A stretch of DNA of 64,000 nucleotides from Heterodontus francisci (taxonomy: Eukaryota), in NCBI RefSeq assembly GCF_036365525.1, contig NC_090386.1, positions 62,514,956-62,578,955 on the forward strand, in the 5' to 3' direction. The stretch's first letter is position 1; each line of letters starts with the position of its first letter. The translations under genes and the position numbers were made by a program. Below, piece by piece: positions 1 to 59,496 of this stretch. The notes beneath the pieces are model-generated. The model was given only the letters and a program-made list of their open reading frames with translations, had not been told where the DNA came from and did no database searches.

Positions 1-476
1 AACAACACTCAGGAAGCTTGACACCATCCCAGACAATGCAGCTCGCTTGATCGGCGCCCCATCCACCACCTTAAACATTCACACCCTCCACCACCGACGC
101 ATAGTGGCAGCAGTGTGCACCATCTACAAGATGCAGTGCAGCAACTTGCCAAGGCTCCTTCAACAGCACCTTCCTTACTGTGAACTCTACCACCTAGAAG
201 GATAAGGACAGCAGACGCATGGGAACATTACCACCTGCAAGTTCCCCTCCCAATTACACACTATCCTGACTTGGAAATATATCGCTGTTTCTTCACTGTC
301 ACTGCATCAAAATCCTGGAACATCCTTCCTAACAGACTGTGGGTGTACCAGCATCAGACGAACTGCAACAGTTCAAGAAGGCAGCTCATCACCGCCTTCT
401 CGAAGGCTGTTAGGGATGGGCAAAAAATTCTGGCCTTGGCAGTGTTGCCCACATCCCATGAAAGAATCTTAAAAAA
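1..476 (+). mobile_element. 3' end fragment of the tRNA-headed single-ORF LINE family
   Basis: Homologous to 15300-15738 and 58300-58776; ends cccacatcccatgaaagaat followed by an A tract. Confidence 0.9.
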
Positions 477-477
477 G

Positions 478-1240
478 CATTCCAAAGGGACTGTTCCCTC
501 CGCGATACTCTGGTCCACTCCTTAATCATCCCCAACACCCTTTTACCTCCTCCTTTCTCACCATTCAAGGCCCCAAACTCACTCTCCAAGTGAAATGGCA
601 TTTTACTTGTACTTTTTTCAAATTATTATACTGTATTCACTGTTCATGATGGGGTCTCCTCTACATTGGGAGACTAAATACAGGTTGGTTTGCAGAACAT
701 TTTCGTTCAGTACACAGGCATGTCCCCACGCTTCTAGCAGCCTGTCATTTTAATTCTCCGCTCCATTCCCACTCAATCCTTAGCCTCCTGCAATGTTCCA
801 ATAAAGCTCTATGCAAGCTCGAGGAACAGCACCTCAACTTTCAATTAGGAATTTTACAGCCTTCCGGATAGAACATTGAGTTCAACAATTTCAGATCTTA
901 ACTTGGACCCCCATTTTCTGTTTTTTGGTTTTACTTTTGGATGGCAGCTATTAGTGATGATTCTGTTTTCCCAACTGCACCACTGGACCATCTTTTGTTT
1001 ATATACTTATCCCATTATCATGCCCTTTTGTCACTTAATCTTTCCCCTCTTCTACCCTATCACAGGGCTTTGTTCTATCCTCCCCTTCCCCTGATCTGCT
1101 TAAACCCATCAATTCTCTAACTTCTTCCAGTTCTGATAAAAGGCCATTGACCTCTCCACAGATGCTGTCAGATCTGCTGAATATTTCCAGCATTTTCTGT
1201 TTTTGTTTCTGATTTCCAGCAACCGCATTATTTTGCTTTG
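478..1240 (+). mobile_element. Degenerate Penelope-like element (GIY-YIG endonuclease C-terminus plus terminal repeat)
   Basis: Decayed FTCT..YCI.C..GLLYIG and KLEEQHL..LG.LQP.G.NIEFNNF motifs at about 600-895. Followed by the tail ccacagatgctg...gaatatttccagcattttctgttt, which recurs at 17.7 kb. Confidence 0.75.
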
Positions 1241-2349: not shown

Positions 2350-4173
2350 TATATGAGCGGTGTCAGAAAACCGGAGGATTACAAATATTACCCCTGTTCA
2401 ACAAAAGGAAAGTGGGCTAAACCTTTTTGAAAACAATAATCAAGCAAAATAATTGGCACTTGAAAACATGTGGGTTAATAAATGAAAGCCAGGATTTGTT
2501 ACAGATAGTGTTTGGCTAACTTGATTCAATTCTTTGATAAACTAAGAGGATTGTGAGGGTAGAGTGGTTGCTGTGTGCATGGAATTTCAAAAGGCTTTTG
2601 ATAAACTGGTTAACCAAATTAAAGGACATTGGATTAAAAGGGGCAGTGTCTGTGTTGAAACGAAATTAGCTAAAGGACAGAAAGTGGAGCGTAGTGGTGG
2701 ACAGTCATTTTTCAGACTGAAGGGAAGGCCCCCAGGTTTGTGCATTAGGACCACTGCCCTCTTGATATCTATTAATGACCTGTACTTGGGTGCACAGGGT
2801 ATAATTTCAAAGGTTACAGATGACACAAAACTTGGAAATGCAGTAAACAATGAGAAGAATAATAAACAACTTCAGGAGGACATAGATGTACGGGTGAAAT
2901 GGGCAGACAGATAGCAGATGAAATTTAACAGAGAAGTGAAGCATGAAGTGATACATTATTGTAGGAAGAATGAGAGGCAATACAAACTAAATGGTAGAAT
3001 TTTAAGAGATCTGGGATGAGCATGCACAAATATTTGGAGGTGGCAGGACAAGTCAAGGTGGTTAATATAAAGGCATACAGGATCTACCATCAACAAGGCG
3101 CAAATCAGGAGCATGCTGGAATAATCTCCACTTGCCTGGATGAGTGCAGCTCCAACAACACTCAAGAAGCTCGACACTATCCAGGACAAAACAGCCAGCT
3201 TGATTGGCACCCCATTTTGCCATTAGCTACAAGGTGCACTGCAGCAACTTGCCAAGGCTTCTTAGACAGCAACATTTAAATCCATGACCTCTAACCACCT
3301 AGAAGGACAAGGGCAGCAGATGCATAGGAACACCATCGCCTGCAAGTTCCCCTCCAAACCACACACCATCCTGACCTGGAACTATTATCACCATTCCTTC
3401 ACTGCCACTGGGTCAAAATCCTGAAACTCCCTCCCTAACAGCACTGTATCTGTGCATACGCGAGATGGGCTGAAGCGGTTCAAGAAGGAGGCTCACAGCC
3501 ACCTTCTCAAGGGCAATTTGGGATGGGCAATAAATGCTGGCCCTGCGAGCAATACCCACATCCCATGAATGAATAAAAAAAATACAGGATTCATGGCTAT
3601 ATAATTAAAAGGCATAAAGTACCAAAGCAAGGAAGTGAAGGAAAATCTTTGCAACACACTGGTTAGAAACCAACTGGAATATTGTGGCCAATTTTGGGCA
3701 CCGCACTTTAGAAAGGATATCAAGGCCTTGGAGGGGTGCAGAGAAGTTTTAGAACAATGATACCAAGGATGCAGGATTTTAGTTATGTGCAAATATTAGA
3801 AAAGATGTGATTGTACTTACAGCAGAGAAGGTTAAGGGAAGATTTGATAGGAGTCTAAATGCATGAATGATAATGACAGAGTAAGTAAAGAGAAACTACT
3901 TCCAGAAAGATTAATAACACAAGGACAGAGATTTAAGATGATTGGCCCAAGAACCATGAGGAAAGAAAACTTCTATGCTGCAAGTTATAATTTAGAATGC
4001 ACTCCCTCAAAAGGATGGTGGAAGCAAATGCAATCATGGATTTCAGAAAGGAATTAGACAAATCCTTGAAGGGGAAAAATTCCAGAAGTGTGGAAAAAGG
4101 GCAGGGAAGAGCAACTCATTGTCTAGTTCTTTCAAAGAGCTGGCACAGGCACGATGGGCCGAATTGCTTCTAT
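2350..4173 (+). mobile_element. Degenerate CR1 (HER1-like) LINE, RT region to 3' end, interrupted at about 3085-3582
   Basis: ORF 2564-2914 has FQKAFDK and ISKVTDDTKLG (FADDTK equivalent). Continues after 3585 with LVRNQLEYCGQFWAPH-type sequence and ends in the gatgggccgaa tail. Confidence 0.8.
3085..3582 (+). mobile_element. 3' fragment of the tRNA-headed single-ORF LINE nested in the CR1
   Basis: Matches the family 3' end and terminates catcccatgaatgaataaaaaaaa. Confidence 0.85.
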
Positions 4174-5174: not shown

Positions 5175-6393
5175 TCAGCCAATCCAATTCACTCGTGATA
5201 CCAAGAAATGGCTGAAGACACTGAATACTGCAAAGGCTATGGGCCCTGCAACATTCCGGCAATAGCACTGAAGATTTGTGCTCCCAACCTAGCCGCACCC
5301 CTAGCCAAGCTATTCCAGTACAGCTACAACACTGGCCTCGACCCGACAATGTGGAAAATTGCCCAGGTATGTCCTGTCCACAAAAAGTAGGACAAATCTA
5401 ACCCGGCCAAATATCACCCCATCTGTCTACTGTCCATCATCAGCAAAGTGACGGAAGGGGTCGTCGACAGTGCTATGAAGTGGTACTTGTTCAGCAATAA
5501 CCTGTTCACTGACACTCAGTTTGGGTTCTGCCAGGGCCACTCAGCTCCTGACCTCATACAGCCTTGGTTCAAACATGGACAAAAGAGCTGAACTCCAGAG
5601 GTGAAGTGAGAGTGACTGCCCTCGGCATCCAGGCAGCATTTGACCGAGTATGGCATCAAGGAGCCCTAGCAAAACTGGAGTCAATGGTAATCAGGGGGAA
5701 AACTCTCCCCCGGTTGGAGTCATACCTAGCACAAAGGAAGATGGTTGATATCACAGAGTTGTTGGAGCTGTACTCCATCCAGGAGTATTCAATCACACTC
5801 CTGACTTGTATCTTGCAGATGGTGGACAGGAACTGGGGAGTCGGCAAGTGAGTTACTCGCCACAGAATTCCCAGACTCTGACCTACTCTTGTAGCCACAG
5901 TATTTGTGTGTCTGATCCAGTTCAAGAAGTTCGACACCATCCAGGACAAAGCAGCCTACTTGACTGGCATCCCATCCACCACCTTCAACATTCACACCCT
6001 CCATCACCGACACACAGTGCCAGTAATGTGCACCATAAACAAGACGCAATGCAGCAACTCACCAAAGCTCCTCCAACAGAACCTTCCAAACCCGCAACCT
6101 CTACCACTTAGAAGGACAAGGGCAGCAGATGCATGGGAACACTACCACCTGCAGGCTCCCCACCAAGCCACACACCATCCTGAGTTGGAACTATGATCGC
6201 CATTCCTTCACTGTCACTGAGTTAAAATCCTGGAACTCCTTTCCTAACAGCACTGTGGGTGTACCAATACCCCAAGGACTGCAGCAGTTCAAGAAGGCGG
6301 CTCACCATCACCTTCTCAAGGGCAAGTAGGGATGGGCAATAAATGCTGGCTTAGCCAGCGATGCTCACATCCCATGAATGAATAAAAAAAAAA
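5175..6393 (+). mobile_element. Rearranged copy of the tRNA-headed single-ORF LINE (RT to 3' tail) with an internal inversion
   Basis: RT peptides LKICAPNLAAPLAKLFQYSYNTG and AAFDRVWHQGALAKLESM. Segment at about 5756-5924 is inverted. Ends in a polyA tail. Confidence 0.88.
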
Positions 6394-7097: not shown

Positions 7098-7981
7098 TGT
7101 TACGACCAGGTGAGAAAGGGGTCTAGGGGTTCCCTCGCAGCCTTTTCCTGGTTTGGCCGTAACAGGGTTTAAGTTTTAAAACACTGTATTTTTAGCTTCC
7201 CTTCGGTGAATCCTTGTTCATTTCTCTCCAATTGTAATAGCAAAGCAATCAACCAGACAGGTTTTCTTAGATTTAAGCAAGAAAGGAGTAAGTTTATTAA
7301 CCTCAAAACTCTAATTCGGTTAAAACTACTAATAATATGCACACAACCACGCTAGCATGCATACACGATAAACACACGCAGATAGAGACAGAAAAGGAGA
7401 AAGAAAGAATCAAGGAGAAAGAATCAAGGGTTTGAAGGTTTGAGTTTGATGCAAAATCTTTGATCGTAGTTAAATCTTGCTGTCTCATTGGGACCCAGTA
7501 CACTCTTTCAAACTTGTTTCAATGGTTTTCTGTCCTGGCTTAGTTGCTTTCATGGGGCCCTGACTTTGCGCGAGAGGGAGAGACCTTCCTCGTATTTTGT
7601 CTTCAAATTGCAGTCTGACCCAAACTGTTCTGTGAACACAATTCAAACCAAACCTGGGCCAGCAGGCCAGTCTTGTGACTAGCTCCCCATCTGGATTGTA
7701 TGTGGATTCTTTCAATCTCAGTAGACACCCTCAGTAGGGGGTCTGGAACTCTAGCTTTCATACACTCATTCTTTTGATCAAAATCCATTTGGTTAATTGA
7801 ATCAGGGAGCAGGTCCATTGTCTTCTCCAGGCAACTGTCTCTTAGAATGTAAATGTTTCCAGCCACTGTCCTTTTAGAATGCAGGTGTCACCATGTTTTC
7901 ATTCCAGTAAGAGTTTAAAATTAATGTTCCATATGATGAAATTAATATGCCTCATTCTTGACAGGTGTGGTTTTCATCACA
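7098..7981 (-). mobile_element. Probable solo LTR, with related pieces elsewhere in the window
   Basis: TGTTACG...CATCACA termini. Ends are homologous to 23944-24135, 25391-25505 (opposite strand), 33594-33880 and about 63300-63532. Confidence 0.65.
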
Positions 7982-9307: not shown

Positions 9308-9713
9308 CTTTTTTTTTTTTTAATTCTTTCATGGCATGCGGGCGTCGCTGGCAAGACCAGCATTTGTTGCCCACCCCTAATTGCCCTTGAACTAAGTGGC
9401 TTGCTAGGCCATTTCAGAGGGCAGTTAACAGTCGACCACATTTGCTGTGGGTCTGGAATCACATGTAGGTCAGACCAGGTAAGGATGGCAAATTTCCTTC
9501 CTTAAAAAGGACATTAGTGAACCAGATGGGTTTTTACAACAATTGACAATGGTTTCATGGTCACCATTAGACTAGCTTTTAATTCCAGTTTTATCAATTT
9601 AATTCAAATTTCACCATCTGCTATAGGGGAATTCGAACCCATGTCACCAGAGCGTTAGCCTAGATGTCTGGATTACTCGTCTAATGACATTACCACTATG
9701 CCACCTCCTCCCC
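9308..9713 (-). mobile_element. tRNA-derived SINE made of the 5' end and 3' tail of the single-ORF LINE
   Basis: A box TGGCATAGTGG (9693-9703), B box GGTTCGAATTCC (9628-9639). Body is homologous to 43208-43506 and the tail to the LINE 3' end, followed by polyA. Confidence 0.9.
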
Positions 9714-12728: not shown

Positions 12729-15700
12729 CACTAATGTCCTTCAGGGAAGAAAATCTGCTGTCCTTACCTGGTCTGGCCTACACATGACTCCAGACCCACA
12801 GAAATCTGGTTGACTCTTAAATGCCCTCCGAAATGGCCTAGTAAGCCATTCAGTTGTATCTAACTACTACGAAGTCAATAAAGGAATGAATACGGACGGA
12901 CCACTTGGACTTGACCTAGGCACCGGAAAGAAAAACGGCAAATCTAGCCCTGTTGACATTGCAAGGTCCTCCTTACTAACATCTGCAGGCTTGTGTCGAA
13001 GTTGGGAGAGCTGTACCACAGACTAGTCAAGCAATGGCCTGGTATTGTCATACTCACCGAATCATACCTTACAGACAATGGCCCAGACAGAGTCATCATC
13101 ATAGCTGGGTATGTCCTGTCCCACTGGCAGGACAGACCCAGCAGGGGTGGCAGCACTGTGGTATACAGTCGAGAGGGAGTTGCCCTGGGAGTCCTCAACA
13201 TTGACTCCAGACGCTCATGGCATCAGGTCAAACATGGGCAAGGAAATCTCCTGCTGATTACCACCTACCCACCATCCCCCACTCTCCTTCAGCTGCTAAA
13301 TCAGTACTCCATGTTGAACGGCACTTGGAGGAATTACGGAGGGTGGCAAGGGCACAGAATGTACTCTGGGTGGGGGACTTCAATGTCCATCACCAAGAGT
13401 GACTTGGTAGCACCACTACTGACCGAGTCCTAAAGGACATAGCTGCTAGACCGGGTCTGCAGTAGGTGGTGAGGGAACCAACAAGAGGGAAAAATATACT
13501 CGACCTCATCCTCACCAATCTGTCTGCCGCAGGTGCAAATGTCCATGACAGTATTGGTAGGAGTGACCACAGCACAGTTCTGGTGGAGACCAAGTCCCAT
13601 CTTCACACTGAGGATACTCTCCATCGTGTTGTGTGGCATGACCACCGTGTTAAATGGGATAGATTTTAAACAGATCTAGCAATGCAAAACTGGGCATCCA
13701 TGAGGCGCTGTGGGCCATCAGCAGCAGCAGAATTGCACTCAATCACAATCTGCAACCTCATGGCCCGGCATATCCCCCACTCTACCATTACCATCAAGCC
13801 GAGGGACCAACCCGGGTTCAATGAAGAGTGCAGGAGGGCATGCCAGGAGAAGCATCAGGCATACCTAAAAATGAGGTGTCTACCTGGTGAAGCTGCAACC
13901 AGGACTAGTTGCATGCCAAACAGCATAAGCAGCATGCGATAGACAAAGCTAAGAGATCCCATAACCAATGGATCAGATCTAAGCTCTACAGTCCTGCCAC
14001 ATCCAGCTATGAATGGTGGTGGACAATTAAACAACTAACAGGAGGAGGAGACTCCACAAATATCCCCATCCTCAATGGTGGAGGAGCCCAGCATATCAGT
14101 GCGAAAGATAAGGCTGAAGCATTTGCAACAATCTTCAGCCAGAAGTGCCGAGTTGATGATCCATCTTGGCCTCCTCCTGAAATCCCCAGCATCACAGATG
14201 CCAGTCTTCAGCCAATTCCATTCACTCCACGTGATATCAAGAAACGACTGAAGGTACTGGATACAGTGAAGGCTATGGGCCCTGACAATATTCCGGCAAT
14301 AGTCCTGAAGACCTGCGCTCCAGAACTTGCTGCTCTCCTAGCCAAGCTGTGCCAGTACAACACTGGCATGTACCCGGCAATGTGGAAAATTGTCCAGGTA
14401 TGTCCTGTACACAAAAAGCAAGATAAATCTAATCCGGCCAATTACCGCCCCATCAGTCCACTCTCAATCATCAGTAAAGAGATGGAAGGCGTCATCAACA
14501 GTGCCATCAAGCGGCACTTGCTTGGCAATAACATGCTCAGTGACACTCAGTTTGGGTTCCGCTAGGGCCACTCAGCTCCAGACCTCATTACAGCCTTGGT
14601 TCAAACATGGACAAAAAAGAGCTGAACTCCAGAGGTGATGTGAGAGTGACTGCCCTTGATATCAAGGCAGCATTTGACAGAATATGGCATCAAGGAGTCC
14701 TCACAAAACTGGAGTCAATGGGAATCAGGAAGAAAATTCTCCACTGGTTGGAGTCATACCTAGCACAAAGGAAGATTGTTGAGGTTGTTGGAAGTCAATC
14801 ATCTCAGCTCCAGGACATCACTGTAGGTGCTCCTCAGGGTCGTGTCCTAGGCCCAACCATCTTCAGCTGCTTCATCAATGATAAGGTCCGAAGTGGGGAT
14901 GTTCACTGATGATTGCACAATGTTCAGCACCATTCGCGACTCCTCAGATACTGAAACAGACTATGCAGAAATGCAGCAAGGCCTGGACAATATCCAGGCT
15001 TGGGCTGATAAGTGGAGAGTAACATTCGTGCAAACAAGTGCCAGGCAATGACCATCTCCCCTTGACAGTCAATGGCATTACCATCGCTGAATCCCCCACT
15101 ATCAACATCCTGGGGTATCTGTTGACCAGAAACTGAATTGGAGTAGCCATATAAATATATGCAAGAGCACATGAGATGCGAGGAATCCTACGGCGAGTAA
15201 CTCACCTCCTGACTCCCCAAAGCCTGTCCACCAGCTACAAAGCACAAATCAGAAGTGTGATGGAATACTTTCCACTTGCCTGGATGGGTGCAGCTCCAGT
15301 AACACTCAAGAAGCTCGACACCATCCAGAAAAAAGTAGCCCGCTTGATTGGCACTCCATCTACAAATATTCACGCCCGCCACCACCGATGCACAGTGGCA
15401 GCAGTGTGTACCATTTACAAGATGCACCGTGGCAACGCATTCAGGCTCCTTCAACAGCACCTTTCAAACCAGTGACCTCTACCACCTCGAAGGACAAGGG
15501 AAGTAGATGCATGGGAACACCACCATCTGCAAGTTCCCCTCCAAGCCACACACCATCCTGACTTGGAACTACATCGCCGTTCCTTCACTGTCGCTGGGTC
15601 AAAATCCTGGAACTCCCTTCCTAACAGCACTGTAGGTGGACTGCAGCGGTTCAAGAAGGCAGCTCACCACCACCTTCTCAAGGGCAATTAGGAATGGACA

Positions 15701-15738
15701 ATAAATGCTGGCCTAGCCAGAGACGCTCACATCCCAGG
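12729..15738 (+). mobile_element. Near full-length copy of the tRNA-headed single-ORF LINE (APE endonuclease + RT, disrupted)
   Basis: Endonuclease motifs IVILTESYL, LWVGDFNVHH, ILDLILTN and GRSDH. RT motifs YRPISPLS, DIKAAFDRIWH and GAPQG..LGPTIF. Several frameshifts and stops; polyA tail. Confidence 0.93.
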
Positions 15739-16559
15739 AACGAATATAAAAAAAAAATACTCCCTGTGGTGACAGTAGAAATTGTAATTTCCCTGCCATT
15801 AATGCTTCACTTTGAAGTTCCACGGAAACTTCTTAGCTGTTGGCACCCATTTATACAAAATGTCACTGTTGTGAGTTTTTCCTAACATTGGTAATGTGCA
15901 ATCAAATGGCAGTTTATACTGTTTTATAGAAGGATGATTTTTCAACAGTGAACTGCTCAATTCAAGCATCTGTTTTAACATAGAATTTAGATAAAGCGTA
16001 GTTGAAATTTTGTCCGTTAAACAAAAAATTTGGAAATATTGTTGATCAGAGTCAAATAATCAGAATCAAAAGTAGTCTTAACCAGCCTTGCTTAGTGGAA
16101 TGATTCTGTTTAAACAGAAGGACAAAATGGGAAAGTCAGTGGTTTAGTCTCGAACTGACCACTTAAGCTTCCTTTACTTTTCATGATTCTAGAGCAATTA
16201 TTTTATTTCAAACTTTATCAGTTTGTGACTAATTTAATAATTATCGTGCTTGCAGCAAAGTAGTGACTGAGGACGTTAAATCATCAGTAGTTTTGATTCA
16301 TTTTGCAGCTTTACCTCACTTGTGGTCATTTTGACATTATGTTGCCGTCATTGTGACCTACATAGGGTGACCACCAACAACGCATGAAACTGCAAGTTAC
16401 TCAGATAGATATTCATTTCCGAATTGGTTTTCTTCATAGTGTGTTTAAACAAATGGTGATCAAATGTAACATGTCAGATTAAATCCTCAAATTCGAATAT
16501 GATCTCTTCTTGCAGCACCATAGGGGTACTACATGTTTCAGTGGCACTGTTAGAGGAAT

Positions 16560-23175: not shown

Positions 23176-23422
23176 CCCGTTGAGAGTTACAAAGCAATAG
23201 TGAGACATTAGTCTTTTTTTTTTTTAAGTTTTACAGAATCCAATAGGAATGCCTAACAATTCTGCAAAGGTTTCTCCTAAGCATGGCATGCAAAGGAACT
23301 TAAGGCATCTTTGTCTTTAAAATATAAATTTATGGTACAATTTTGCTCAGGTTAGTTTATTCAAAGTTTCTACTGTCATCCTCTCTGTTAAGAGTAGGAT
23401 GGCCTGACCAGCCGACAGCTCT

Positions 23423-35315: not shown

Positions 35316-37880
35316 GCTAAGTGTTGCACCATCAATGACTTCACTTATATAAGTAAAATAAACCATATTTTCCAATTTTAAATTAAATTAAATTCTGGGC
35401 TCCAAATCAGACTCCAAAATACTGGACTAAAAGCAGGGGTTACGGAGGACCGAGTGTCAAATCCAAAGTACCACCCTTGCTTTGCCCCTAACCTGGAATC
35501 AGACCAACACAAAAAGTTGTTGCTACGTTTAAGACTCTCCAAACCAAACTACTGAGAAATTCACACAAGTAAATATCAAACACTCACTTTCTCCTCTTCT
35601 CTCTTTCAGTTCCACTTACCAAGCTCCAGAGAGTTTGGTCAAAGATTGGCAATAGCCAAGGCTTGGGGGTTCCTGAAAGTGTATTATACTGGATTTTAAC
35701 CACCTAAAACCACAAGGCTTACCAGTGCAAAGTTACCTGCCAGATCAGACCACTATCAATTAAAGCATATAGCTTGCAGGGTTATCTGGAGCTGACTGGA
35801 AAGAACTTGAGCTCTCCATGACAAATTTACCCCTCATTGCGTATAAGCAAAGCTAAAAAAAAGTACACAGGACTATGCCAACCTTTCTGGCTCAGATGGC
35901 CAGAGGGTTGGCTCAAATTGCAATTCTTCCATCAGGTGTACTGTATTACAGCCAACATGATAGCCAAGATGTTCCACTTAGCCCTGCTCTCTCTTTGCCT
36001 CCTTCTCCACCATTGACAGCCACACCTGATGATAGTCACTGGTTGGTCATTAGACAACTACAGAGTAGGAGTTTGAGTACTCCACTTGGAAGACAGAAAA
36101 CTTCAAGCATTTCTCAAAACACACATCATCATCCACCCAAACACATCATGAGTAAACACATGGTTCCACCAGTTAAGATGCAGAGCAACAACTGCTTACT
36201 TCTTGCACCCAGTTATGACAGGCATCAAACCTTGGAGATCGAAGCAAATCATTTTATAACCAGCCTTGAAATAACACCTTCTGCCAAGGCTTAGAATTTC
36301 CTCATCAGCTGTGTGACAGATGTGCCTTCAGCGTGGTGCAAAGACTGATACATGGCAGATTATGATATGCAGCCACCTTGATGTTCTAGGCATCAACATG
36401 CAATGCCTGCACGAGGCTACTTGAACACATCTGCTAAATGCATTTTCTTGTAGAAGTAGTTTTGAAAAAGTGATGCATCTGCTGTGAGGTTAACTGTCCC
36501 TCTTGGGTGCTGAGTGACAGTCTCATGTAGGCCAGAGCGCTCTCACTGCAATAACTTCCCTTTTCTAACCAGAAATTCATCTGTCAACTTGGTTTTTGCA
36601 CATATGCCACATGGAACTCTTTGCATGCCATTAACTTATAAAATGTTCAGGACTACTATTTGGATACATCTTATATGCCACAAGTTTAACCAACATGAGG
36701 ACTCGCAGTTACTGAAAAAAAAAGATAGAAAATCCAAAAGCACCTTAGATCACTCAGCGAAGCCATGGCAAACTCTGCAAGCTGACAGACATATATCAGA
36801 ACCTCAGGTACTGACCAAACAATTGGGACAAATGTTCCCGGTGTTTTTCAGTCAATACCTTCAGGATTCCCATTTCAATGGTGAAAAGCCATATACAGCA
36901 TTTAACTGCAGCCAGCACCATATCCCACTGTTAGGTCCACTTTTGGATGGTCAGTAGAGATTACCTGATTCCCAGATGAGTCCAACAAACAAGCAATGCA
37001 GTTCTTTCAGTAATGCCTGGAATGGGCACTTCTATGATGATCCTTGAAGATACCAAAGATATCACTGATGAAACTGGCCAATCTGGCTTCATTCTCAATA
37101 GTTTTAGCAGGCCTCTATCAACACAAGTGTCTCAGAGCTGGAGAAAGCAGCTCATATAAAATCTACAATTTTTTTTTTATATTCATTCATGGGATGTGGG
37201 CGTTGCTGGCTAGGACAACATTTATTACCCATCCCTAATTCCCCTCGAGAAGGTGGCGGTCAGCTGCCTTCTTGAACCGCTGCAGTCCATGTGGTGTAGG
37301 TACAACTACAGTGCCATTGGGAAGAGAGTTCCAGGATTTTGACCCAGCAACAGTGAAGGAACGGCGGCGATACTGTTCCAAGTCAGGATGGTGTATGGCT
37401 TGGAGGGGAACTTGCAGGTGGTGGTGTTCCCATGCATCTGCTGCCCTTGTCCTTCTAGGTGATAGAAAAGTCACAGGTTTGGAAGGTGCTATCTAAGGAG
37501 CTTTGGTGCATTGCATCTTGTAGATGGTACATACTGCTGCCACTGTGTGTCAGTGGTGGAGGGAATGAATGTTTGTGGATGGAGTGTCAATCCAGAGGGC
37601 TGCTTTGTCCTGGATGGTGTCGAGCTTCTTGATTGTTATTGGAGCTGCACTTGTCCAGGCAAGTGGAGAATGTTTCATCACACTCCTGAATTGTGCCTTT
37701 TAGATGGTGGACAGGCTTTGGGGAATTGGGAGGCGAGTTACTCATCACAGGATTCTTAGCCTCTGACCTGCTGTTGTAGCCACGGTATTTATATGGCGAC
37801 TCCAGTTCAGTCTCTGGTCAATGGTAACCCCCAGGATCTTGATAGTGGGGGATTCAGCAATCGCAATGACTCTGAATGTC

Positions 37881-40800
37881 ATAGAATCATATAATCATAG
37901 AAAGTTTAAAGCACAGAGAGAAGCCACTTGGCCCATCATTCCTGTGCCAGCCGAAAAACGATCCACCTTTTCTAATCCCACCTTCCAGCATTTAGTCTGT
38001 AGCTCTGCAGATTACAGCACTTGAGGTGCATATCCGGACTCCTTTTAAATGAGTTGAGAATCTCTGCCTCAGCTACCCTTTCAGGCAGTGAGTTCCAGAC
38101 CCCCACCACCCTCTGGGTGAAAAAGGTTTTTCCTCATCTCCCCTAATTTTTCTACCAATCACTTTAAATCTATGCCCCCTCGTCACTGACCTCTCTGCTA
38201 CAGTAAATAGACCCTTCACCTCCACTCTAACCACGCCCTTCAAAATTTTGTACATTTCAATCAGATCTCCTCTCAGCCTTCTCTGTTCCAAGGAGAACAA
38301 CCCCAGCCTATCCAATCTTTCCTCATAGCTGCATGTTTCCAGTCCTGGCAGCATCCAAATAAATCTCCTCTGTACCCTCTATAGTGGAATTACATCCTTT
38401 CTGTAATGAGGTGACCAAAACTACATACAGTACTCAAGTTGTGGCCTAACCAAAGAGTTATACAGTTCCAGCAAAACCTCCCTGCTCTTATATTCTATAC
38501 CGCAGCTAATAAAAGAAAGGATTCCATATGCTTTCTTAACCATCTTATTGATCTGTCCAGCTACCTTCAGGGAACTGGGGACATTCACTCCAATGTCCCT
38601 CACTTCCTCTACACTTCTCAGTATTTTCCCATTAATCGTGTATTTCTTTGCCTTGTTTGACCTCCCCAAATGCTCAAACTTCTCCAGGTTGAATTCCATT
38701 TGCCACTTTTCTGCCCATCTGACCAGACCATCAATCTTCCTGCAGCCTACAGCTATCCACCTCACTATCTACCACACGGCCAATGTGTCATCTGCAAACT
38801 TCTTGATCATGCCCTCTGCATTTACATCCAAATCGCTTATACCACAAAAAAACAGGGGACCCAGTATTGAGCCCTGCGGAATACCACTAGAAACAGCCCT
38901 CCAGTCGCTAAAACACCCGTCAATTACCCTTTGTTGCCTGCCACTGAGCCAATTTTGTATCCACCTTGCTGCATTTCCCTGGATCCCATGGGATTTTATT
39001 ATTTTTTTTAAACCAGTCTGCCATGTGGGACCTTGTCAAAAGCCTTGCTAAAATCCATGTAGACCACATCAACTACACTACCCTCATCTACCTTCCTTGT
39101 TACTTCTTCAAAAAATTTGATCAAGTTGGTCAAACAATATCTTCCCTTAACAAATCCATGCTGACTATCCTTGTTTAACCTATGCCTTTCTAAATGACAG
39201 TTATCCTACCTCTCAGAATTGATTCCGAAAATTTGCCTACTACGGAGGTTAGACTGACTGGCCTGTAATTATTGGGTCTATCCCTCGCTCCCTTTTTAAA
39301 CAGAGGTACAACCTTAGTAGTCGTCCAATCCTCTGGCACCACACCTGTATCCGGGGAGGACTGGAAAATGATGGTCAGACCTTCTACGAGTTCCTCTCTT
39401 GCTTCTTTTAATAGCCTAGGGTATATTTCATGTGGCCCTTATGATTTATCAACTTTCAAGGATGCAAATCCCTGAATACTTCCTCTCTCCCTTGTTCATC
39501 ACATTCAGTCCTTCACACTCCGCCTCCTTAACTACAATATCTGCATCATCCCCCTCTTTTGTGAAGACAGACGCAAATATTCATTAAGAACCATACCAAC
39601 ATCGCCTGCCCCTACAGGTTACCTTTTTGGTCTTTTATAGGCCTGGCTCTCTCCTTAGTTATCCTTTTGCTCTTAATGTATTGATAAAACATCTTTGGGT
39701 TCACCTTAATTTTGCTCGCCAATATTCTTTCATGCCCTCTCTTTGCTTTACTAATTTCCTTTTTGATTTCACCCCTCCACTTTCTAGAAAGCGGAGAGGA
39801 GTTTTGAGTTCTCGGTGTCATACATAAGCTTTCCTTTTCTGCCTTATCTTACCCTGTAGGCTTCTTGATATCCATGGGGCTCTAGATTTGGCCATTTCAC
39901 CCTTGTTCTTTGTGAGAACATGTTTACTCTGACCCCCTTGAATCTCCCCATTGAATGCCTCCCACTGCTCTGACACTGATTTACCTTCAAGTAGATGTTT
40001 CCAGTCCACTTTCGCGAAATCACTACTCAGCTTAGTAAAATTGGCCTTGCCCCAATTGAGAACTTTAACTCCTGTTCTATCCTTGTCCTTTTCCATAATT
40101 ATGTTAAAATTAACGGAATTATGATCACTACCACCAAAATGCTCTCCAACTGCCACCCCTTCCACCTGCCCATCTTCATTTCCTAAAACCAAGTCTACAA
40201 CTGCATCCTCTCTTGTTGGACTTGCTACATACTGGGCAAAAAGGTTCTCCTGAATGCACCTCAAGAATTCTGCTCCCTCAATTCTTTTCACACTAAAACT
40301 ATCCCAGTTAATATTGGGGTAGTTAAAATACCTTACTATTATTTCCCTATTGTTCTTGCACTTCTCAGAGATTTGCCTACATATCCGCTCTTCTATTTCC
40401 CTCTGTTTGGGGGTAGAGCATGGCTACCCGACCCTAACCCAACAACACGTGTCAGGTTCGGGTCTGGTCACTCTTCCGGGTCCGGCATTCGGGCTCAGGT
40501 CAGGCTGGGTCGGACACAGTGACAGCCAGGACGTCAAGGTGGGAAACACTCTGCACTAGTCTGCAGTGAGCGATTACATCCAAGATAGAGCACAACCTCT
40601 TTAATATAATCAACTTTATTCCGGTGGTCAGGTCGGGCGAAGGAAAAAATGAAAGGACTCGGGTCGGGTGTGGTTCTGTCGGGCTCGGGTCCGGTTTCAT
40701 TTGCAGACCCAAGCAGGGCTTTATTTGGGGGTCTATAGTACACTCCTAGCAGTGTGATTGCCCTTTTTTTGTTCTTTAGCTCAATCCATATGGCCTCATT

Positions 40801-40980
40801 TGATGAACCTTCCAACATACCATCCTTCCTCACAGCTGTAATAGTTTCCTTCACCAAAATTGCCACTTCCCCTCCTTTCTTATCCCCCTCCCTATTGCAT
40901 CAGAAAACCCTGTAACCAGGAACGTTGAGCTGCCATTCCTGTCCCTCCTTAAGCCATGTTTCTGTAATAGCTATAATATC
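37881..40980 (-). mobile_element. CR1 (HER1-like) LINE, ORF2 endonuclease to RT, nested
   Basis: AITETWL, LLGVYYRPPN, DLVLGNE, GGSDHNSV and LEQRRLRGDLIE peptides; (ATTCTATG)-type microsatellite tail at 37881-37900. Confidence 0.9.
40414..40723. mobile_element. hAT-type MITE nested in the CR1 endonuclease region
   Basis: Perfect 8 bp TSD tttggggg (40406-40413, 40724-40731), imperfect TIR TAGAGCATGGCT/AGCAGGGCTTTA, TCGGGTC repeats. Confidence 0.88.
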
Positions 40981-43949
40981 AAGGGCAGATGGTTAGATTC
41001 TGTCTTGTTGGAGATGGTCATTACCTGTCACTTGTGTAGCATGAATGTTACTTGCCACTTATCAGCCCAAACCTGGATATTGTCCAAGTCTTGATGCATT
41101 TCTACATGGACTGCGTCAGTACCTGAGGAGTCGTGAATGGTGCTGAACATTGTGCAATCATCAGCGAAAGCAAACATCCCCACTTCTGACCTTATGATTG
41201 AAGGAAGGTCATTGATGAAGCAGCTATAGATGGTTGGGCCCAGGACACTACTCTGTGGAACTCCTCTAGTGATGTCCTGGAGCTCAGATGATTGACCTCC
41301 AACAACCACAACCATTTTACTTTGCGCTAGGTAAGACTCCAACCAGCGGAGTTTTCCTCCTGATTCCCATTGACTACAGTTTTGCTAGGGCTCCTTGATG
41401 CCATACTCGGTCAAATGCTGCCTTGATGTCAAGGGCAGTCACTCTCACCTCTGGAGTTCAGCTCTTTTGTCCATGTTTGAACCAAGGATGTAATGAGGTC
41501 AGGAGCTGAGTGGCCCTGGCGAAACCCAAACTGAGCATCACTACGCAGGTTATTGCTGAGCAAGTGCCGCTTGACAGCGCTGTTGACGACACCTTCCATC
41601 ACTCTACTAATGGTCGAGAGTGGACTGTAATTGGTCGGGTTGGATTTGTCCTGCTTTTTGTGTACAGGACATACCTGAGCAATTTTCCCATTGCCAGGTT
41701 AACGCCTGTGTTGTAGCTGTGCTGGGACAGCTTAGCTAGGGGCGCGGCAAATTCTGGAGCACAAGTCTTCAGTGCTAGTGCCCGAATGTTGTCACGGCCC
41801 ATAGCCTTTGCAGTATCCAGTGCCTTCAGTTGTTTCCTGACATCACGCGGAGTGAATGGAATTAGCTGAAGACTGGCATCTGTGATGCTGGGGACTTCAG
41901 GAGGAGGCCGAGATGAATCAGTCACTCGGCACTTCTGGCTGAAGATTGTTGCAAATGCTTCTGCCTTATCTTTCGCACTGATGTGCTGGGCTTCCTCCAT
42001 CACTGAGGATGGGGATATTTGTGGAGCCTCCTCCTCCAATTATTTTTGTTTAATTGTTCACCACCATTCACGACTGGATGTGGCAGGACTGCAGAGTTTA
42101 ACTCTGTCTATCACATGCTACGTACACTGTTTGGCATGCAAGCAATCCTGGTTGTAGCTTCACCAGGTTGACATCTCATTTTGAGGTATACCTGGTGCAG
42201 CTCCTGGCATGCCCTCCTGCACTCTTCATTGAACCAGAGTTGGCCCCCCGGCTTGATGGTAATGGTAGAGTGGGGGATATGCCAGGCCATGAAGTTACAG
42301 ATTGTGGTTGAGTACAATTCTGCTGCTGCTGATGGCCCACTGCGCCTCATTGATGCCCAGTTTTGTGTTGCTAGACCTGTTTGAAATCTATCCCATTTAG
42401 CATAGCAGTAGTGCCACACAACACGATGGAGAGTATCCACAATGTGAAGATGGGACTTCGTCTCCACAAGGACTGTGCGTTGGTCACTCCTACCAATACT
42501 GTCAACAACAGATGCTTCTGTGGCAGGTAGATTGGTGAGGACAAGATCAAATATGTTTACCCCTCTTGTTGGTTCCCTCACCACCTGCCACAAACCATGT
42601 CTAGCAGCTCTGTCCTTTAGGACTCGGCCAGGAGACGTGCTACTGAGCCATTCTTGGTGAGAGACATTGAAGTCCCCCACCCAGAGTACATTCTGCACTC
42701 TTGCCACCCTCAGTGCTTTCTCCAAGTGCTGTTCAACATGGAGGAATACTGATTCATCAGCTGGGGGGGGGGGGGGGGGGGGGGGCGGGGATGGGTGGGT
42801 AGGTGGTAATCAGCAGGAGGTTTCCTTGCCCATGTTTGACCTGATACCATGAGACTTCATGGTGTCTGGAGTCGATGTTGAGGACTCCCAGAGCAACTCC
42901 CTCCACTGTGCTGCCACCTCTGGTGGGTCTGTCCTGCTGGTGGTACAGGACATACCTGGGGAATGGTGATGGCGATGTCTGGAACATTGTCTGCAAGGTA
43001 TGATTTGGTGAATATGACTGTCAGGCCATTGCTTGACTCGTCTGTGGGACAGCTCTCCAAACTTTGGCACAAGTCTCCAGATGTTAATAAGGAGGACTTT
43101 GCAGGGGCCAACAGGGCTGGGTTTGCCGTTGTCATTTCCAGTGCCTAGGTGAATGCCAGGTGGTCCGTTCAGTTTCATTCCTTATTGACTTTGTAGCGGT
43201 TTGATACAACGGAGAGGCTTGCTAGGCCATTTCAGAGGGCATGTAAGAGTCAACCACATTGCTGTGGGTCTGGAGTTACATGTAGGCCAGAGAAGGTAAG
43301 GACAGCAGATTTCCTTCCCTAAAGGACATCAGTGAACTAGATGGGTTTTTTCGACAATGGTTTCATGGCCATCATTAATTCCAGATTTATTAATTGAATT
43401 GCAATTCCACCTTCTGCGATAGTGGAATTCGAACCCATGTCTCCAGATCTATACCCTAGGTCTGAGTTACTAGTCCAGTAATAATACCACTATGCCACCG
43501 CTTCCCTGCAATTCAGCTACCTACTCCCACAAATCCCCTACATCAGCCTGTGCATCATGGGCAGCTCTGAAATAAGTCGGCAGTTCACACCACTTATCTC
43601 AAAAGATCACCACCATCCCCCCAAAAAACTCCATTTAGAGCAGACTTCAAGAATCTGGCACAAAATGTCATCCACACTTGACAGCCAACCAATAAGCCAG
43701 ACAATGAAGTATGAAACATATTGCCACTCAGCCAACTGATGGGGACGGGGGGTGGGGGGGGGGGGGTGGAGAAGAAGTGGAGAAATAGGATAGACAAGAG
43801 AGGGAAACTCTCACCACTGTTGCCTCACATCCATTACAAATCAGATTCCAGGTGAAGCCTTAATCTAGCTTTCCCAAAATATACAATCAGGATTGGAGAT
43901 CTGAAATTAGTTGCCCTGTCGGTTTGTTCAAAAGATACTGCAAATTAAG

Positions 43950-46300: not shown

Positions 46301-48144
46301 AAATAAGGCTGTTTTGCTTCGAACTGCATCGGATTTGAATACAAATATAAATTAGTCTGTTTTCCCCTCTGGTGAAATAATGTGACTGATACTTAGCCAA
46401 ATGTCAAATCAATGAATTATGAAAAAAGCGTAGAAAAACTTATCTCAATCCTTGCAAGGAATCAAATGAGAGGATTCTTGGAGAGATATGCAAGATACTA
46501 AGCGGAATAACATTTTTGTCAAACAATGCTGGCATAAATTGGTAAACGGCAATTTCAACAATGATGTGAGAAAGCACTTTTCCATCCTGGGGTGATCTTT
46601 TGGCTAGGTTTGTGGAGTTGAACAGCAAGTCAAGTACTCTATTTTAGAGAGGCTAGTGGGGTGACACCATCATACCGAACACCAAATATTCTGCAAGCAC
46701 CATCTTAAATTTGAGAGGGTGCCACTGATGAAACATCTCCTAGCTGTGTGATCCAGGTGACCAAAAATGAGCATCTAGGGAAACGTGCAGCCAAAAATCG
46801 TGGACTACCTCAAGTAACGATAAGGTGCCTTCAACCTTGCGCACTGCCTAGCAGTCAGTGCTGTGATGGAGGGACTAGAGGTTCGTTGTAGGATCGAGCC
46901 AGATGACTTTCCTCATCTGTATTTAGCTATGGGATAACCTGTTCAGCTTGAGCAACTACACAATCTGACACCACAACCAATTGAAATACTTAGGTTGTTT
47001 AGGTGAGTGTAGGGCACAAAGTCAAATCATTATGCCAGTTTAACTGATTTAGTTAATTTAGGGTACTACCAATCTATAGCAGGAAGTGTGTAACTCAAAT
47101 ATCCATGATGTATTTATGGTGGACCATTTCTGAATCTAGTGTTACTTTTTCAGGTTCAAATGCTTTCAGGCTAGTTAAATTGCACAGTTTGCATCAATAC
47201 TCTGGCTTCATATTGATGCAAACAATACAATGTAGTTTGGGTGCCAAGTACCCAGAAAGCAAAGTGAAGCGGAGTGAGAAAATCTCCAGAAGGTGTCTTA
47301 CATTGCTTCAGCTTCATACAGGCTGCAGTCTGACTGTTCACTAATGTTTTGAATCTTTTAAGTGTTACCAGTCCGCTCTCTGCTAAGATTCAAAATTTAA
47401 AACATGCAGTGCTCACAAGTGAAATGCTGCATATAGCCATTCCATTTCAATGGCTTGAGATGGACACATACTTGGCAGTATAACTCAGGTTTGTAAATTC
47501 AACATTACTCTCAGCCATAAGAGATGAGAGAACAATTACAATACACAGCTAACATTCCTTCGACTACAGAATAAAATTAACATTCCAATAACATGAATCC
47601 CATGCCCGTTAGAAATGCCTGCTGCAACTACTGTTAAGATATTATACTACCAACACTCCAGTAAGTAAACCAGCATACAATTTTACTTTTCTGAAAATAA
47701 ATTCATGACCCTTAAATGTTACATCACCAGATCACACCATTTGGTCCATCGTAATTCAAACACACAGAATAGCCCAAAAATCTTCCCACTGAAGCATCTA
47801 ATTGGTTCTTAAATGGTTGCAGGGTTTTCAGTTCTACAAGTCTATCTAGAATTCCATTCCATGTATTGTTCAGTCTTTGTATGAAAAATAACTTGCTGAT
47901 ATCCATTCCAAATTTTCCTTATATTAGCTACTTTTATTAGTAGCCCTTTGTCTGATTCTTGCATTTTAATTTTAAATAATTTTATGGATTTATCTTTTCC
48001 ATGTCATTTATGTTTTTAAGTATCTCTGTGAGATTACCTTTCTGATGCTTCCTTTCACAGCTGAAAAGTTTCTGCAGTCTTTCCTGATAGGCTTGAGTGA
48101 AGTATCCACGCCGACATGGACTGGTTGGGCCAAATGGCCTTTTT

Positions 48145-48776
48145 CAATATTAATTTCATGGGATGTGGGTGTCATTTGTTGCCCATTCATAATTGCCCCT
48201 GAGAAGGTGATAGTGAGCCGCCTTCTTGAACTGCTGCAGTCTATCTGGTGTGGGTACACCCACAGTGCTGTTAGGGAGGGTGTTCCAGGATTTTGACCCA
48301 GCGACAGTGAAGGAACTGCGATATTTTCCAAGTCAGGGTGATGTGTAGCTTGGAGGGGAACTTGCAGATGGTGTTGTTTCCACATGTCTGCTGCTCTTGT
48401 CCTTCTAGGTAGAAGAGGTCGCAGGTTTGGAAGGTGCTGTTGAAGGAGGCATGTGAATTGCTGCAGTTCAGATTGTATATGGAGGGAGTGAATATTTAAG
48501 GTGGTGGATGGGGTGCCAATCAAGCGGGCTGCTTTGTCCTGGATGGTGTTGAGTTTCCTGAGTGTTGTTGGACCCACACTCAACCAGACAATTGGGGAGT
48601 ATTCCATCACACTCCTGACTTGTGCCTTGTTGATGGTGGCCAAGCTTTGGAGAGTCAGGAGCTGGGTTACTCACTGCAGAATTCCCAGTCTTTGACAGTT
48701 CTTGTAGCCATAGTATTTATGTGGCTGCTCCAGTTCAGTTTCTGGACAATGGTAACCCCATGGATGTTGATAGTGT
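48145..48776 (-). mobile_element. 3' fragment of the tRNA-headed single-ORF LINE
   Basis: KAQVRSVMEYSP and LRKLNTIQDKAARLIG peptides plus the family 3' tail. Confidence 0.88.
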
Positions 48777-55791: not shown

Positions 55792-58776
55792 ACAGCAATG
55801 TGGTTGATGCTTAAATGCCCTCTGAAATGGCCGAGCAAGCTACTCAGTTGTATCAAACTGCTACAAGATCGAAGAAAAGGAATGAAACCAGACGGACCAC
55901 ACAGCATCGACCTAGGCACCGGAAACGACAACGGCAAACCCAGCACTGTCGACCCTGCAAAGTCCTCCTTACTAACATCTGGGGGCTTGTGCCAAAATTG
56001 GGAGAGCTGTCCCACAGACTAGTCAAGTAACAGCCCGCCATAGTCATACTCACGGAATCATACCTTGCAGACAATGTCCCAGACACCACCATCACCATCC
56101 CTTGATATATCCTGTCCCACTGCAGGATAGGCCCACCAGAGGTGGCGGGTGGACAGTCGGGAAGGAATTGCCCTGAGAGTCCTCAACATTGACTCTGGAC
56201 CCCATGAGGTCTCATGGCATCAGGTCAAACATGGGCAAGGAAACCTCCTGCTGATTACCACCAACTGCCCCCTCTCAGCTGATGGTGCTTCCCCATGTTG
56301 AACACCACTTGGAAGAAGCACTGAGGGTAGCAAGGGCACAAAATGTACTCTGGGTGGGAGACTTCAATGTCCATCACCAAGAGTGGCTCGGTAGCACCAC
56401 TATTGACCGAGCTGGCCAAGTCCTAAAAAACATAGCTGCTAGACTGGGTCTGTGGCAGGTGGTGAGGGAACCAAGAGGAAAAAACATACTTGACCTCATC
56501 CTCACCAATCTACCTGTTGCAGATGCATCTGTCCATGACAGTATTGGTAGGAGTGACCACCGCACAGTCCTTGAGGAGACCAAGTCCCGTTTTCATACTG
56601 AGGGTACCCACCATCGTGTTGTGTGGCACTGCTGCCATGCTAAATGGGATAGATTTCGAACAGATCTGGGAACTCAAAATTGGACATCAGCAACAGCAGA
56701 ATTGTATTCAACCACAATCTGTAACCTCATGGCCCGGCATATCCCCCACTCTACCATTACCATCAAGCCAGGGACCAAACCTGGTTCAATGAAATGTGCA
56801 GGAGGGCATGCCAGGAGCAGCACCAGGCAAACCTCAAAATGAGGTGTCAGCCTGACGAAGCTATAACACAGGACTAATTGCATAACAAACCATGGAAGAA
56901 GCATGCAATAGACAGGGCTAAACACTCCCACAACCAACGAATCAGATCTAAGCTCTGCAGTCCTGCCACATCCAGTTGTGAATGGTGGTGGACAATTAAA
57001 CAACTAACAGGAGAAGGAGGAGGCTCATAAATATCCCCATCCTCAACGATGGGGGAGCCCAGCACATCAGTGCCAAAGACAAGGTTGAAGCATTTGCATC
57101 CATCTACAGCTAGAAGTACCAACTGGATGATCCATCTCGGCCTCCTCCTGAGATTCTCAGCATCACAGATGCCAGTCTTCAGTCAATCCGATACATTCCA
57201 CGTGATATCAAGAAACAGCTGAAGGCACTGGAAAATGTAAAGGCTATGGGCCCTGACAACATTCCGGCAATAGTACTGAAGACTTGTGCTCCAGAACTAG
57301 CCGCGCCCCCTAGCCAAGTTGTTCCAGTACAGCTACAACACTGGCATCTACCTGGCAATGTGGAAAAGTGCCCAGGGATGTCCTGTGCACAAAAAGCAGG
57401 ACAAATCCAACCCGGCCAATTTCCGCCCTATCAGTCTACTCCTGATAATCAAAGTGATGGAAGGGGTCGTCGACAGTGCTATCAAGTGACACCTGCTCAG
57501 CAATAACCTGCTCACTGATGCTCTGTTTGGGCTCCGCAGGGGCCATTCAACTCCTGTCCTCATTACATCCTTTGTCCAAACATGGACAAAAGAGTTGAAC
57601 TCCAGAGGTGAGGTGAGAGTGACTGCCCTTGACATCAAGGCAGCATTTAACTGAGTATGGGATCAAGGAGTCAATGGGAATCGGGGGGAAACTCTCCGCT
57701 GGTTGGAGTCATACCTAGCACAAAGGAAGATGGTTGTGGTTGTTGGAGGTCAATCCTCCCATTCCCAGGACATCACTGCAGGTGTTCCTCAGGGTAGTGT
57801 CCTGGGCCGAACTATCTGTGACTGTTTCATAAATGACCTTCCCTCCATCATAAAGTCAGAAATGGGGATGTTTGCTGATGACTGCACAATGTTCAGCACC
57901 ATTTGCGACTCCTCAGATACTAAAGCAATCCATGTCCATATGCAGAAAGACCTGGACAACATCCAGACTTGGGCTGATAAGTGGCAAATAACATTCACGC
58001 CACACAAGTGCCAGGTAATGACCATCACCAACAAGAGAGAATCTAACCATCTCCCTGTGACATTCTATGGCATTACTATCGCTGAATCTCCCATTATCAA
58101 CATCCTGGGGTTCACCATTGACGAGAAACTGAACTGGACCAGCCACATAAATGCTGTGGCTACAAGAGCAGGTTAGATCCTGGGAATTCTACAGCGAGTA
58201 GCTCACCTCCTGTTTCCCCAATGCCTGTCCACCATCTACAAGGCATAAGTCAGGAGTGTGATGGAATACTCTCCACTTGCCTGGATGGGTGCGGTTGCAA
58301 CAACACTCAAGAAGCTCAACACCGTCCACGACATAGCAACCTGTTTGATTGGCACCCCATCCACCACCTTCATCATTCACTCCCTTCACCACTGACACAG
58401 AGTGGCAGCAGTGTGTACCATCTACAAGATACACTGCAGCAACTCACCAAGGCTTCTTCCACAGCACCTTCCAAACCCACAGCCTCTTCCACCTAGAAGG
58501 ACAAGGGCAGCAGATGCATGGGAACACCACCACCTGCAAGTTCTCCTCCAAGCCACACACCATCCTGACTTGGAACTATATCGCTGTCCCTTCACTGTTG
58601 CTGGGTCAAAATCCTGGAACTCCCTTCCTAACAGCACTGTTGGTGTACATACACCCCAAGGACTGTCACGGTTCAAGAAGGTAGCTCACTACCACCTTCT
58701 CCAGGGCAATTTGGGATGGGCAATAAATGCTGGCCTAGCCAGCAAGACCCACATCCCCCGAACTAATATGAAAAAG
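55792..58776 (+). mobile_element. Near full-length copy of the tRNA-headed single-ORF LINE (disrupted)
   Basis: KVLLTNIWGL, LWVGDFNVHH, GRSDH, GVPQGSVLG and FADDCT motifs. Starts inside the SINE-shared leader and ends in the family tail. Confidence 0.93.
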
Positions 58777-59496
58777 ATTCCAAGCCAAATATCACCATGG
58801 AAGAGCGTATTAAACTAACTGCAGCAGGAATGTATCTTCAATGCAAGATCTTCATGTTCTGCATCTGTCATTTTAACACCCTCCTTTGTTTGATGAGTAA
58901 TCCTTCGCGGAATGGTTCTCCACACAGCCATTTCATTCATTTGGAAGTGAACCAGACTCTCACTTATGCAATACAAGAGGCTCTTTGCTGAGTCTCGAAA
59001 AAGACCAAGTACATAGAAATCAGTATCACCTAGACAGGGCCTACCTTTGTACTACTGCAAGGGTCTGCCTTTATTCTTCACCTGCAAACTATATTTCAAC
59101 AGTCGACAACATGTTTCATTTGCATGAAATATGAAATAGTTCTGCCCATTCACATGGATGATTCCAAGCATCAGTTAATGGTACTAGAGGTCAAAATGAT
59201 CTGCAATTTTTTTTAAAATTGGACTTATCTGGGACTATCCTGCAGCAATGCCTGCAATCTTAATAACAAACTGCAGGCATGGGAGTAGCAGTTTTAAACA
59301 GTTGTATAGGCTCACTCAGTGTGAAATATCAACAGGGTGGGTCTGCATGCATGACACATCCAGAAGGGGAGTAGGTGGGAGGTAGGCTGGTACAAAGGGT
59401 GGGAAGCAGGCAGGATCGAAGACAAGAAGAGGGAGCAAGGTGGATGGTGGCATTGCAATTGTGGCTAGAATTGTCCTGGGACAGTTTCTACTCTAA

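Follow-up and report, generated by a model that had tools for sequence, protein, structure and literature searches.

LINEs are as a rule transcribed by RNA polymerase II (Pol II) and SINEs by Pol III, and a SINE takes from its partner LINE only the 3' tail. A short repeat at 9308..9713 (minus strand) in a 64-kb window of the Heterodontus francisci genome (the window being the whole stretch of 64,000 nucleotides that was analysed) raises the question of how a SINE came to have not one but both of its ends in common with a single LINE. The origin of SINE bodies has been described as open (PMC5786205) and the conserved domains of SINEs as not found in LINEs (PMC5804259), in the passages of the two papers that deal with them. 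A first reading of this DNA, made by a model from the sequence alone (the sequence-only reading), had aligned 9390-9713 with the first ~300 bp of a LINE and 9308-9389 with its end plus poly(A), and had left two ways for the pair to arise, an internal deletion of the LINE or the capture by the LINE of its own SINE.

The SINE copy is 406 bp long and, by self-BLAST of the window and alignments, is composed of a tRNA-like head, a body, a LINE tail and poly(A), all read on the minus strand. The head occupies 9628..9713, with an A box (TGGCATAGTGG) at 9703 and a B-box-like motif (GGTTCGAATTCC) at 9639. The body (9390..9627) aligned with the 5' leader of the LINE and is not of the V-domain type. The tail (9322..9389), delimited by alignments and folding, contains the final ORF codons and then a short 3' UTR, with a hairpin of two stems, and is followed by a poly(A) of 13 nt (9309..9321). 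The whole copy corresponds to the first ~300 bp of the LINE, the last 68 bp of the LINE and the poly(A), with no unassigned base at the join. Self-BLAST bore out both alignments of the sequence-only reading and its junction between 9390 and 9389, and narrowed the second segment to a tail at 9389-9322 and a poly(A) at 9321-9309. SINE positions 9395-9712 matched LINE positions 43213-43506 at 78.9% identity (E 6e-73), 9390-9519 matched 12729-12855 at 83.8% (E 1e-31), and 9390-9448 matched 55792-55849 at 84.7%, the last being part of a third LINE copy that was absent from the earlier list. The 3' part of the SINE matched six LINE 3' ends at 77.6-84.6%, with a partial match to a seventh.

The junction was sharp when compared from both sides. 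The 30 nt on its 5' side matched the LINE 5' side at 26-27/30 positions in 3/3 copies, compared to 9-10/30 for the LINE sequence ahead of the tail (5/5 copies tested), and the 30 nt on its 3' side matched the LINE tails at 24-27/30 (5/5 copies tested), compared to 8-12/30 for the LINE sequence past the 5' breakpoint (3/3 copies). These comparisons bear out the earlier proposal of an autonomous/non-autonomous pair with both ends in common. The LINE 5' side had been given as cagtt/gtatc, which is correct for the copies at 12.8k and 55.8k but not for the copy at 43208, which reads ccgtt/gtatc. Microhomology at the breakpoint is 1 nt, a single common T exactly at the junction; by eye, the LINE tail region has a GTTCAAG match ~28 nt 5' of this point, which would allow a two-step route of deletion. 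The SINE body contains upstream ATGs and one TTTTT, and the TTTTT is missing from both LINE copies that span the site.

The partner LINE is represented by one full-length copy (minus strand; BLAST and Pfam), two long truncated copies and several fragments. The 5' part of the full-length copy (40972..43506) contains the head (A box at 43497, B-box-like motif at 43435), the leader down to 43208, the endonuclease and the reverse transcriptase (RT), and the 3' part lies at 37168..37884 (BLAST). Between them is a nested CR1-type element of another family (37885..40971, minus strand; Pfam and BLAST), which stands outside the SINE/LINE pair and was used as a control; its sequence starts within the endonuclease region and closes with short tandem TTCTATGA-type repeats. 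As the LINE copy runs from 43506 to 40972 and resumes beyond the nested CR1 at 37884 to reach its poly(A) at 37168, a total of 3,252 bp, a single insertion bears head, ORF and tail. The two other long copies lie on the plus strand (BLAST): one at 12729..15758, 5'-truncated within the leader shared with the SINE and with tail and poly(A), the other at 55792..58783, 5'-truncated 58 nt ahead of the breakpoint and with the tail. LINE 3' fragments were found at 1..485 and 3083..3582 (plus strand) and at 48140..48775 (minus strand) by self-BLAST and tail alignment, and at 5175..6393 (plus strand) by self-BLAST. The last of these is rearranged: its middle piece (5755-5924) is inverted and borders the forward 3' piece at one and the same position of the LINE, the pattern that twin priming would leave. 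A small inverted LINE piece is also present at 49233-49538. Altogether the family accounts for about 20% of the window (~12.8 kb).

This LINE is a CR1-group element of ~3.25 kb with one ORF, coding for endonuclease and RT, and no ORF1. Pfam searches with pieces of the long copies identified the endonuclease (PF14529) and RT (PF00078) domains in a single ORF, preceded at the 5' end by the tRNA-like head and a ~330-nt leader. The endonuclease starts ~400 nt from the 5' end, which leaves no space for an ORF1. In 4/6 copies the stop codon of the ORF is the fourth codon of the tail, and in the other two the frame reads on. A leader ATG (43259/55798), a candidate ORF start inside the part shared with the SINE, has the same frame as another ATG beyond the breakpoint in two of the three LINE copies; a TAA follows ~25 codons after the leader ATG in the 43k and 12k copies, so that the frame is uninterrupted in the 55k copy alone. 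In an RT tree of 35 rows, two LINE copies of the window grouped with a horn shark protein only (100/99), apart from the other CR1s of the window; the tree contains no Zenon sequence, and the CR1/Zenon-like placement is by domain layout and length. Only generic endonuclease clusters came back from the ESM Atlas, DNA patterns gave no match in metagenome, viral and prokaryote collections, and neither protein scans of viral contigs nor an N-terminal peptide search returned a match. The named database proteins bearing pieces of the LINE were gene models of catshark, sawshark, horn shark and whale shark. Four shark gene models contain in-frame pieces of the LINE or its leader, annotated as an amino acid transporter (P0001), chitobiase-like (P0003) and a FERM-domain protein (P0014), with no named function for the fourth (P0009); these pieces are either exonisation or annotation error.

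The same join of leader to ORF was found in three LINE copies, and the complete head is present on only one. With SINE-body sequence directly upstream of the ORF, from the same base, in 3/3 long copies, it could be argued that the LINE inserts specifically into SINE copies and that the head is merely flanking sequence. Two of the copies are, however, truncated within the body, at different points of the leader, and no SINE tail follows the 3' end or poly(A) in any of the three long copies. The leader therefore belongs to the copied RNA and not to the target site. Target-specific insertion into SINEs was rejected on these 3' flanks and is, in our judgement, scarcely credible.

Only one SINE copy with the junction is present in the 64-kb window, and no target-site duplication was seen around it by eye, as would suit a one-off deletion in a LINE copy after its insertion at this locus, though the LINE copies show no duplication either. 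We searched 1.84 billion proteins by phmmer with the SINE open frame that spans the junction and obtained six matches. One of them, P0008, is the translation of a 589-bp contig from another assembly and spans the junction without gaps (25/34 identities), its residues 16-60 aligning with the LINE leader frame and residues 61-72 with the LINE tail frame. Over the last body segment, P0008 agrees with the window SINE at 14/17 residues and with the LINE likewise at 14/17 (counted by eye); being equally far from both, it is probably a separate copy rather than an orthologue. P0008 and the window SINE also have three residues in common where most or all LINE copies differ, which indicates a SINE master copy. 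The sequence-only reading had allowed for a junction unique to this locus, but the same junction, with the same diagnostic residues, occurs in this extra copy, which makes a one-off deletion very improbable. A further match, P0009 from whale shark, stops at the junction and is uninformative on it, and the remaining four were left out as long proteins of low identity with 5-17 matched stretches. The putative status of the SINE as a family rests on two copies, the window SINE and P0008.

Of the two origins offered by the sequence-only reading, internal deletion is favoured over capture because the 5' homology ends at the very base where the 3' homology begins and because the identities are equal. 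Body identity was 86-91% between SINE and LINE and 85-88% between LINE copies, and tail identity was 80.4% and 81.7%, respectively. A single internal deletion would create the border between body and tail unaided, and the SINE is thus probably an internal-deletion derivative of the LINE. Had the SINE come first, a template switch would have transferred the entire 5' part of an existing SINE to the LINE, in place of the LINE 5' UTR. This order has in its favour that tRNA heads are typical of SINEs and that exchanges of modules through template switches are well documented in the relevant sections of two papers (PMC4824008; PMC5786205). Neither the head nor the body of the LINE was matched among 80 distant RT loci (28-45% identity), and the head is therefore probably a late gain by the LINE, as capture would have it. 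The switch would, however, have to hit the exact base of the body/tail border of the SINE among ~400 possible positions, and the SINE tail differs from the LINE tails no more than these differ among themselves, giving no sign of an older, separate history of the SINE. On this balance capture appears unlikely. No near RT relatives of the LINE were found outside sharks. ARAGORN, applied to 38 of the 80 distant loci, detected no comparable head, a weak result since it misses the LINE's own head too. At one distant relative (L004) it called a tRNA-Ile at 1965-2039 (minus strand), lying antisense at the start of a stop-free RT frame.

Under internal deletion, we propose that the LINE probably acquired its head earlier, at an undated point, by a template switch onto tRNA or SINE RNA. 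A master LINE copy would then have lost its interior in a single deletion, starting where the leader ends and extending as far as the final ORF codons, and the remnant, consisting of promoter, leader, 3' hairpin and poly(A), would have spread as a SINE family by means of the LINE enzyme. Transcription would begin at the head and yield an RNA that includes the leader, the ORF, the tail hairpin and the A-tail; the ORF product would then bind this hairpin and copy the RNA into nicked DNA. The RNA of the SINE, which shares that promoter and hairpin, would use the LINE enzyme in trans, a mobilisation suggested by established LINE/SINE biology. The most likely reason for the head to have been retained is that the LINE itself would use the A and B boxes for Pol III transcription.

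The heads of the SINE and LINE both start 9-10 nt ahead of the A box, with the B-box-like motif ~62-64 nt further on, so that the boxes are in register between the two elements. The A box matches in both heads, and the B-box-like motif has one mismatch to the strict consensus in both. Neither ARAGORN nor Rfam detected a tRNA in the SINE or LINE head, and a two-sequence fold of the heads, which are ~20% apart, was not a cloverleaf; the head is called tRNA-like because of the A and B boxes and their spacing. An Rfam search of the LINE leader gave no credible match, to a ribozyme or otherwise. At the other end, the tail folds as a two-stem hairpin of which each of the 15 predicted pairs is kept in at least 5/7 copies, with covariation at 1/15 pairs and weak single-sequence z-scores. 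An AATAAA lies ~40 nt ahead of the poly(A) in 5/7 LINE tails, within the inner hairpin loop (e.g., 15679-15746); the SINE tail has AACAAA in its place, as does one LINE fragment.

A scarcity of T-runs on the LINE sense strand, missed by the sequence-only reading, emerged from counts of runs in the majority state. Pol III terminates at runs of four or more T. The test set consisted of nine LINE segments (11.8 kb), and the majority state was taken over 3,073 columns with at least two copies. Across these segments there are four TTTT runs, none of which occurs in more than one copy. The majority state contains no run of four or more T compared to 3.8 expected (P about 0.02) and four runs of three or more compared to 19 expected (P < 0.001), with no comparable deficit in runs of three of A (45), C (40) or G (32). 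After correction for CpG decay the expected values were 3.2 (none observed) and 17 (four observed). Scoring ties as T wherever any copy has T gave zero runs of at least four and nine of at least three, and the extreme bound, with every unresolved column set to T, gave three T4 and 13 T3 runs. The 172 nt of the head known from one LINE copy contain no TTT. Dinucleotide-preserving shuffles greatly weakened the depletion (four observed compared to ~10 expected; P < 0.05 in only 1/9 segments), and the TT dinucleotide of the LINE has an observed/expected ratio of 0.68, so that its low TT content absorbs much of the T-run deficit.

The observed/expected ratio of T3 was 0.64, 0.32 and 0.57 in the three long LINE copies, compared to 1.1-1.5 in the four other LINE ORFs of the window, which contain 4-21 TTTT each. 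Among 65 distant RT ORFs the median was 1.03 and the minimum 0.75; these controls are only 28-45% identical to the LINE and mostly T-richer. They were drawn from 80 metagenome RT loci, of which 15 with no stop-free RT frame of 250 codons were dropped, and one of the 65 (822 bp) is likewise without TTTT. The Phe codons TTT and TTC stood at 17:28 against 33:10, counts that come from non-independent copies and are supporting only.

Transcription by Pol III would account for the loss of TTTT from the LINE sense strand, and the A box at 9-10 nt from the 5' end of both elements also counts for it. That Pol III transcribes the LINE from the A and B boxes into a full RNA has, in our estimate, somewhat less than an even chance. 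We would put at about even the chance that Pol II, acting from the leader or from host promoters, makes the LINE RNA, with the head a relic and T-runs scarce for other reasons, for instance because U-rich signals for RNA-binding, splicing or decay are avoided; this alternative concerns only the transcription step. A Pol III transcript of 3.25 kb would be unusually long and uncapped, which counts for Pol II, as do the imperfect B box and the large part of the depletion that low TT content absorbs. Non-LTR elements are generally Pol II transcripts, as the pertinent part of one source states (PMC10886601), and the AATAAA of the LINE tails, which the SINE does not have, could mean Pol II processing. 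Pol II transcription fits less well with a TTT depletion that is missing from the other LINEs of the window and the 65 distant relatives and is confined to T and to the sense strand. In the full-length copy nine other ATGs come before the one close to the endonuclease, which argues against ordinary cap-dependent scanning; with so many, internal entry or re-initiation would probably be needed under either polymerase. The full picture, of an autonomous LINE wholly transcribed by Pol III from a tRNA-type promoter within it, with a 3.25-kb sense strand purged of oligo-T and cap-independent translation, and of a SINE that is the same element minus its ORF, is tentative, and we would sooner bet against it than on it.

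If the purge of T-runs does reflect Pol III transcription, the LINE would provide a natural protein-coding Pol III transcript of several kilobases, and the head and body of the SINE would descend from a LINE of an abundant vertebrate family (~20% of the window). All three modules of the SINE (head, body and tail) map to a single CR1-group LINE. For annotation, sequences from the 5' end of this LINE will be mistaken for SINEs.

Several other repeats are present in the window. Two 413-bp stretches (23422-23834 and 59938-60350), 99% identical and situated beside RT-coding elements, represent a recently active family. Another RT-coding family (18202-20936, 34286-35408 and 54446-54862), with copies 89-92% identical, was used as a T-run control. 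A MITE-like non-coding repeat (26435-26800, 40423-40726 and 48837-48943) has long, GC-rich ends that form imperfect inverted repeats, and a further family (7097-7303, 23943-24136 and 33624-33706) shows 75-87% identity between copies. A V-domain SINE family, at 52845-53195 (plus strand) and 17219-17425 (minus strand), has 90-94% identity between copies and is younger than the SINE considered here. The tail of this family resembles CR1 ends at 21827-21870 and 37907-37981 and not the LINE of the pair, and BLAST between the V-domain family and the SINE gave no match. We take the V-domain SINE and its CR1 partner to be probably HE1/HER1.

The HE1/HER1 (V-SINE) label was also tried for the SINE/LINE pair itself. 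HE1, a V-SINE, and HER1, a LINE, of sharks and rays form a SINE/LINE pair with a common 3' tail and a tRNA head, as here, in the portions of the literature that describe them (PMC3747384; PMC4824008). The SINE considered here is without the V domain of ~80 bp that comes behind the tRNA head in V-SINEs such as HE1, and the V consensus in the published excerpt differs from it (PMC6887750). A short V motif matched another repeat family of the window and not this SINE; as the V domain thus belongs to a family whose tail is shared with other CR1s, the label was dropped. Short-motif searches of gapped supplementary sequences gave no meaningful match to the Deu, Meta, CORE and UCON3 domains in the SINE. 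The SINE has traits of SINE2, with A and B-like boxes at its 5' end (the B box with one mismatch) and a tail in common with its partner LINE, and also the trait of a short internally deleted derivative (SIDE), the 5' and 3' ends of one autonomous LINE.

For the expression of the LINE, R2 offers a partial parallel, as its translation is uncapped. R2 is also a single-ORF autonomous element expressed without a Pol II promoter of its own, according to the section of the source that treats it (PMC5786205). It is co-transcribed with rRNA and released by a ribozyme, whereas the leader of the LINE here has no ribozyme match. RTE-1_DAn and related elements are LINEs with tRNA-like sequence, as here, but belong to the RTE clade, and their tRNA-like matches were removed as accidental and left unanalysed in the relevant part of the survey (PMC5786205). 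The same survey, where it discusses bodies, names RTE and Vingi as the only contributors of SINE bodies (PMC5786205). Bov-A/Bov-tA, AfroSINE, WALLSI2 and CoeSINE4/5 have a body and tail from both ends of one LINE, as here, in the sections that describe them (PMC5786205; PMC7245038). In these bipartite RTE/Vingi derivatives, the parent LINE is headless and it was the deleted derivative that gained a head, whereas here the CR1-group parent bears the head (PMC5786205; PMC7245038). The literature passages covered contain no tRNA-headed shark LINE and no T-run depletion of one; Repbase and Dfam, which may hold such an element, lay outside the search. A putative internal deletion of a LINE that itself bears a tRNA-like head is what appears to be new in this SINE.

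The closest precedent for the pair is Zenon (CR1) and Persaeus of Lepidoptera, as far as the excerpts of that study go (PMC6740152). Zenon elements are 3.06-3.74 kb long, and Persaeus elements, of high copy number, are 263-386 bp long (PMC6740152). The LINE here has the same CR1-group, Zenon-like layout, with a single ORF of apurinic-type endonuclease and RT, about 3.3 kb and no ORF1, and by eye the RT motif of Zenon-1_Hmel resembles its own (PMC6740152). A whale shark preprint names a 'CR1-Zenon like LINE' class, with its structure undescribed in the part available. Like the SINE here, Persaeus retains the 5' UTR and ORF start of its LINE together with the ORF end, 3' UTR and poly(A) (PMC6740152). 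The Zenon excerpts contain runs of five T, unlike the LINE here, and Persaeus is described there as lacking a Pol III promoter and any homology to tRNA, 5S or 7SL, and as having a middle part that varies (PMC6740152). The pair in this window differs from such Persaeus-type SIDEs in that there is no middle, and both partners bear A and B-like boxes at the 5' end, those of the SINE apparently inherited from the LINE.
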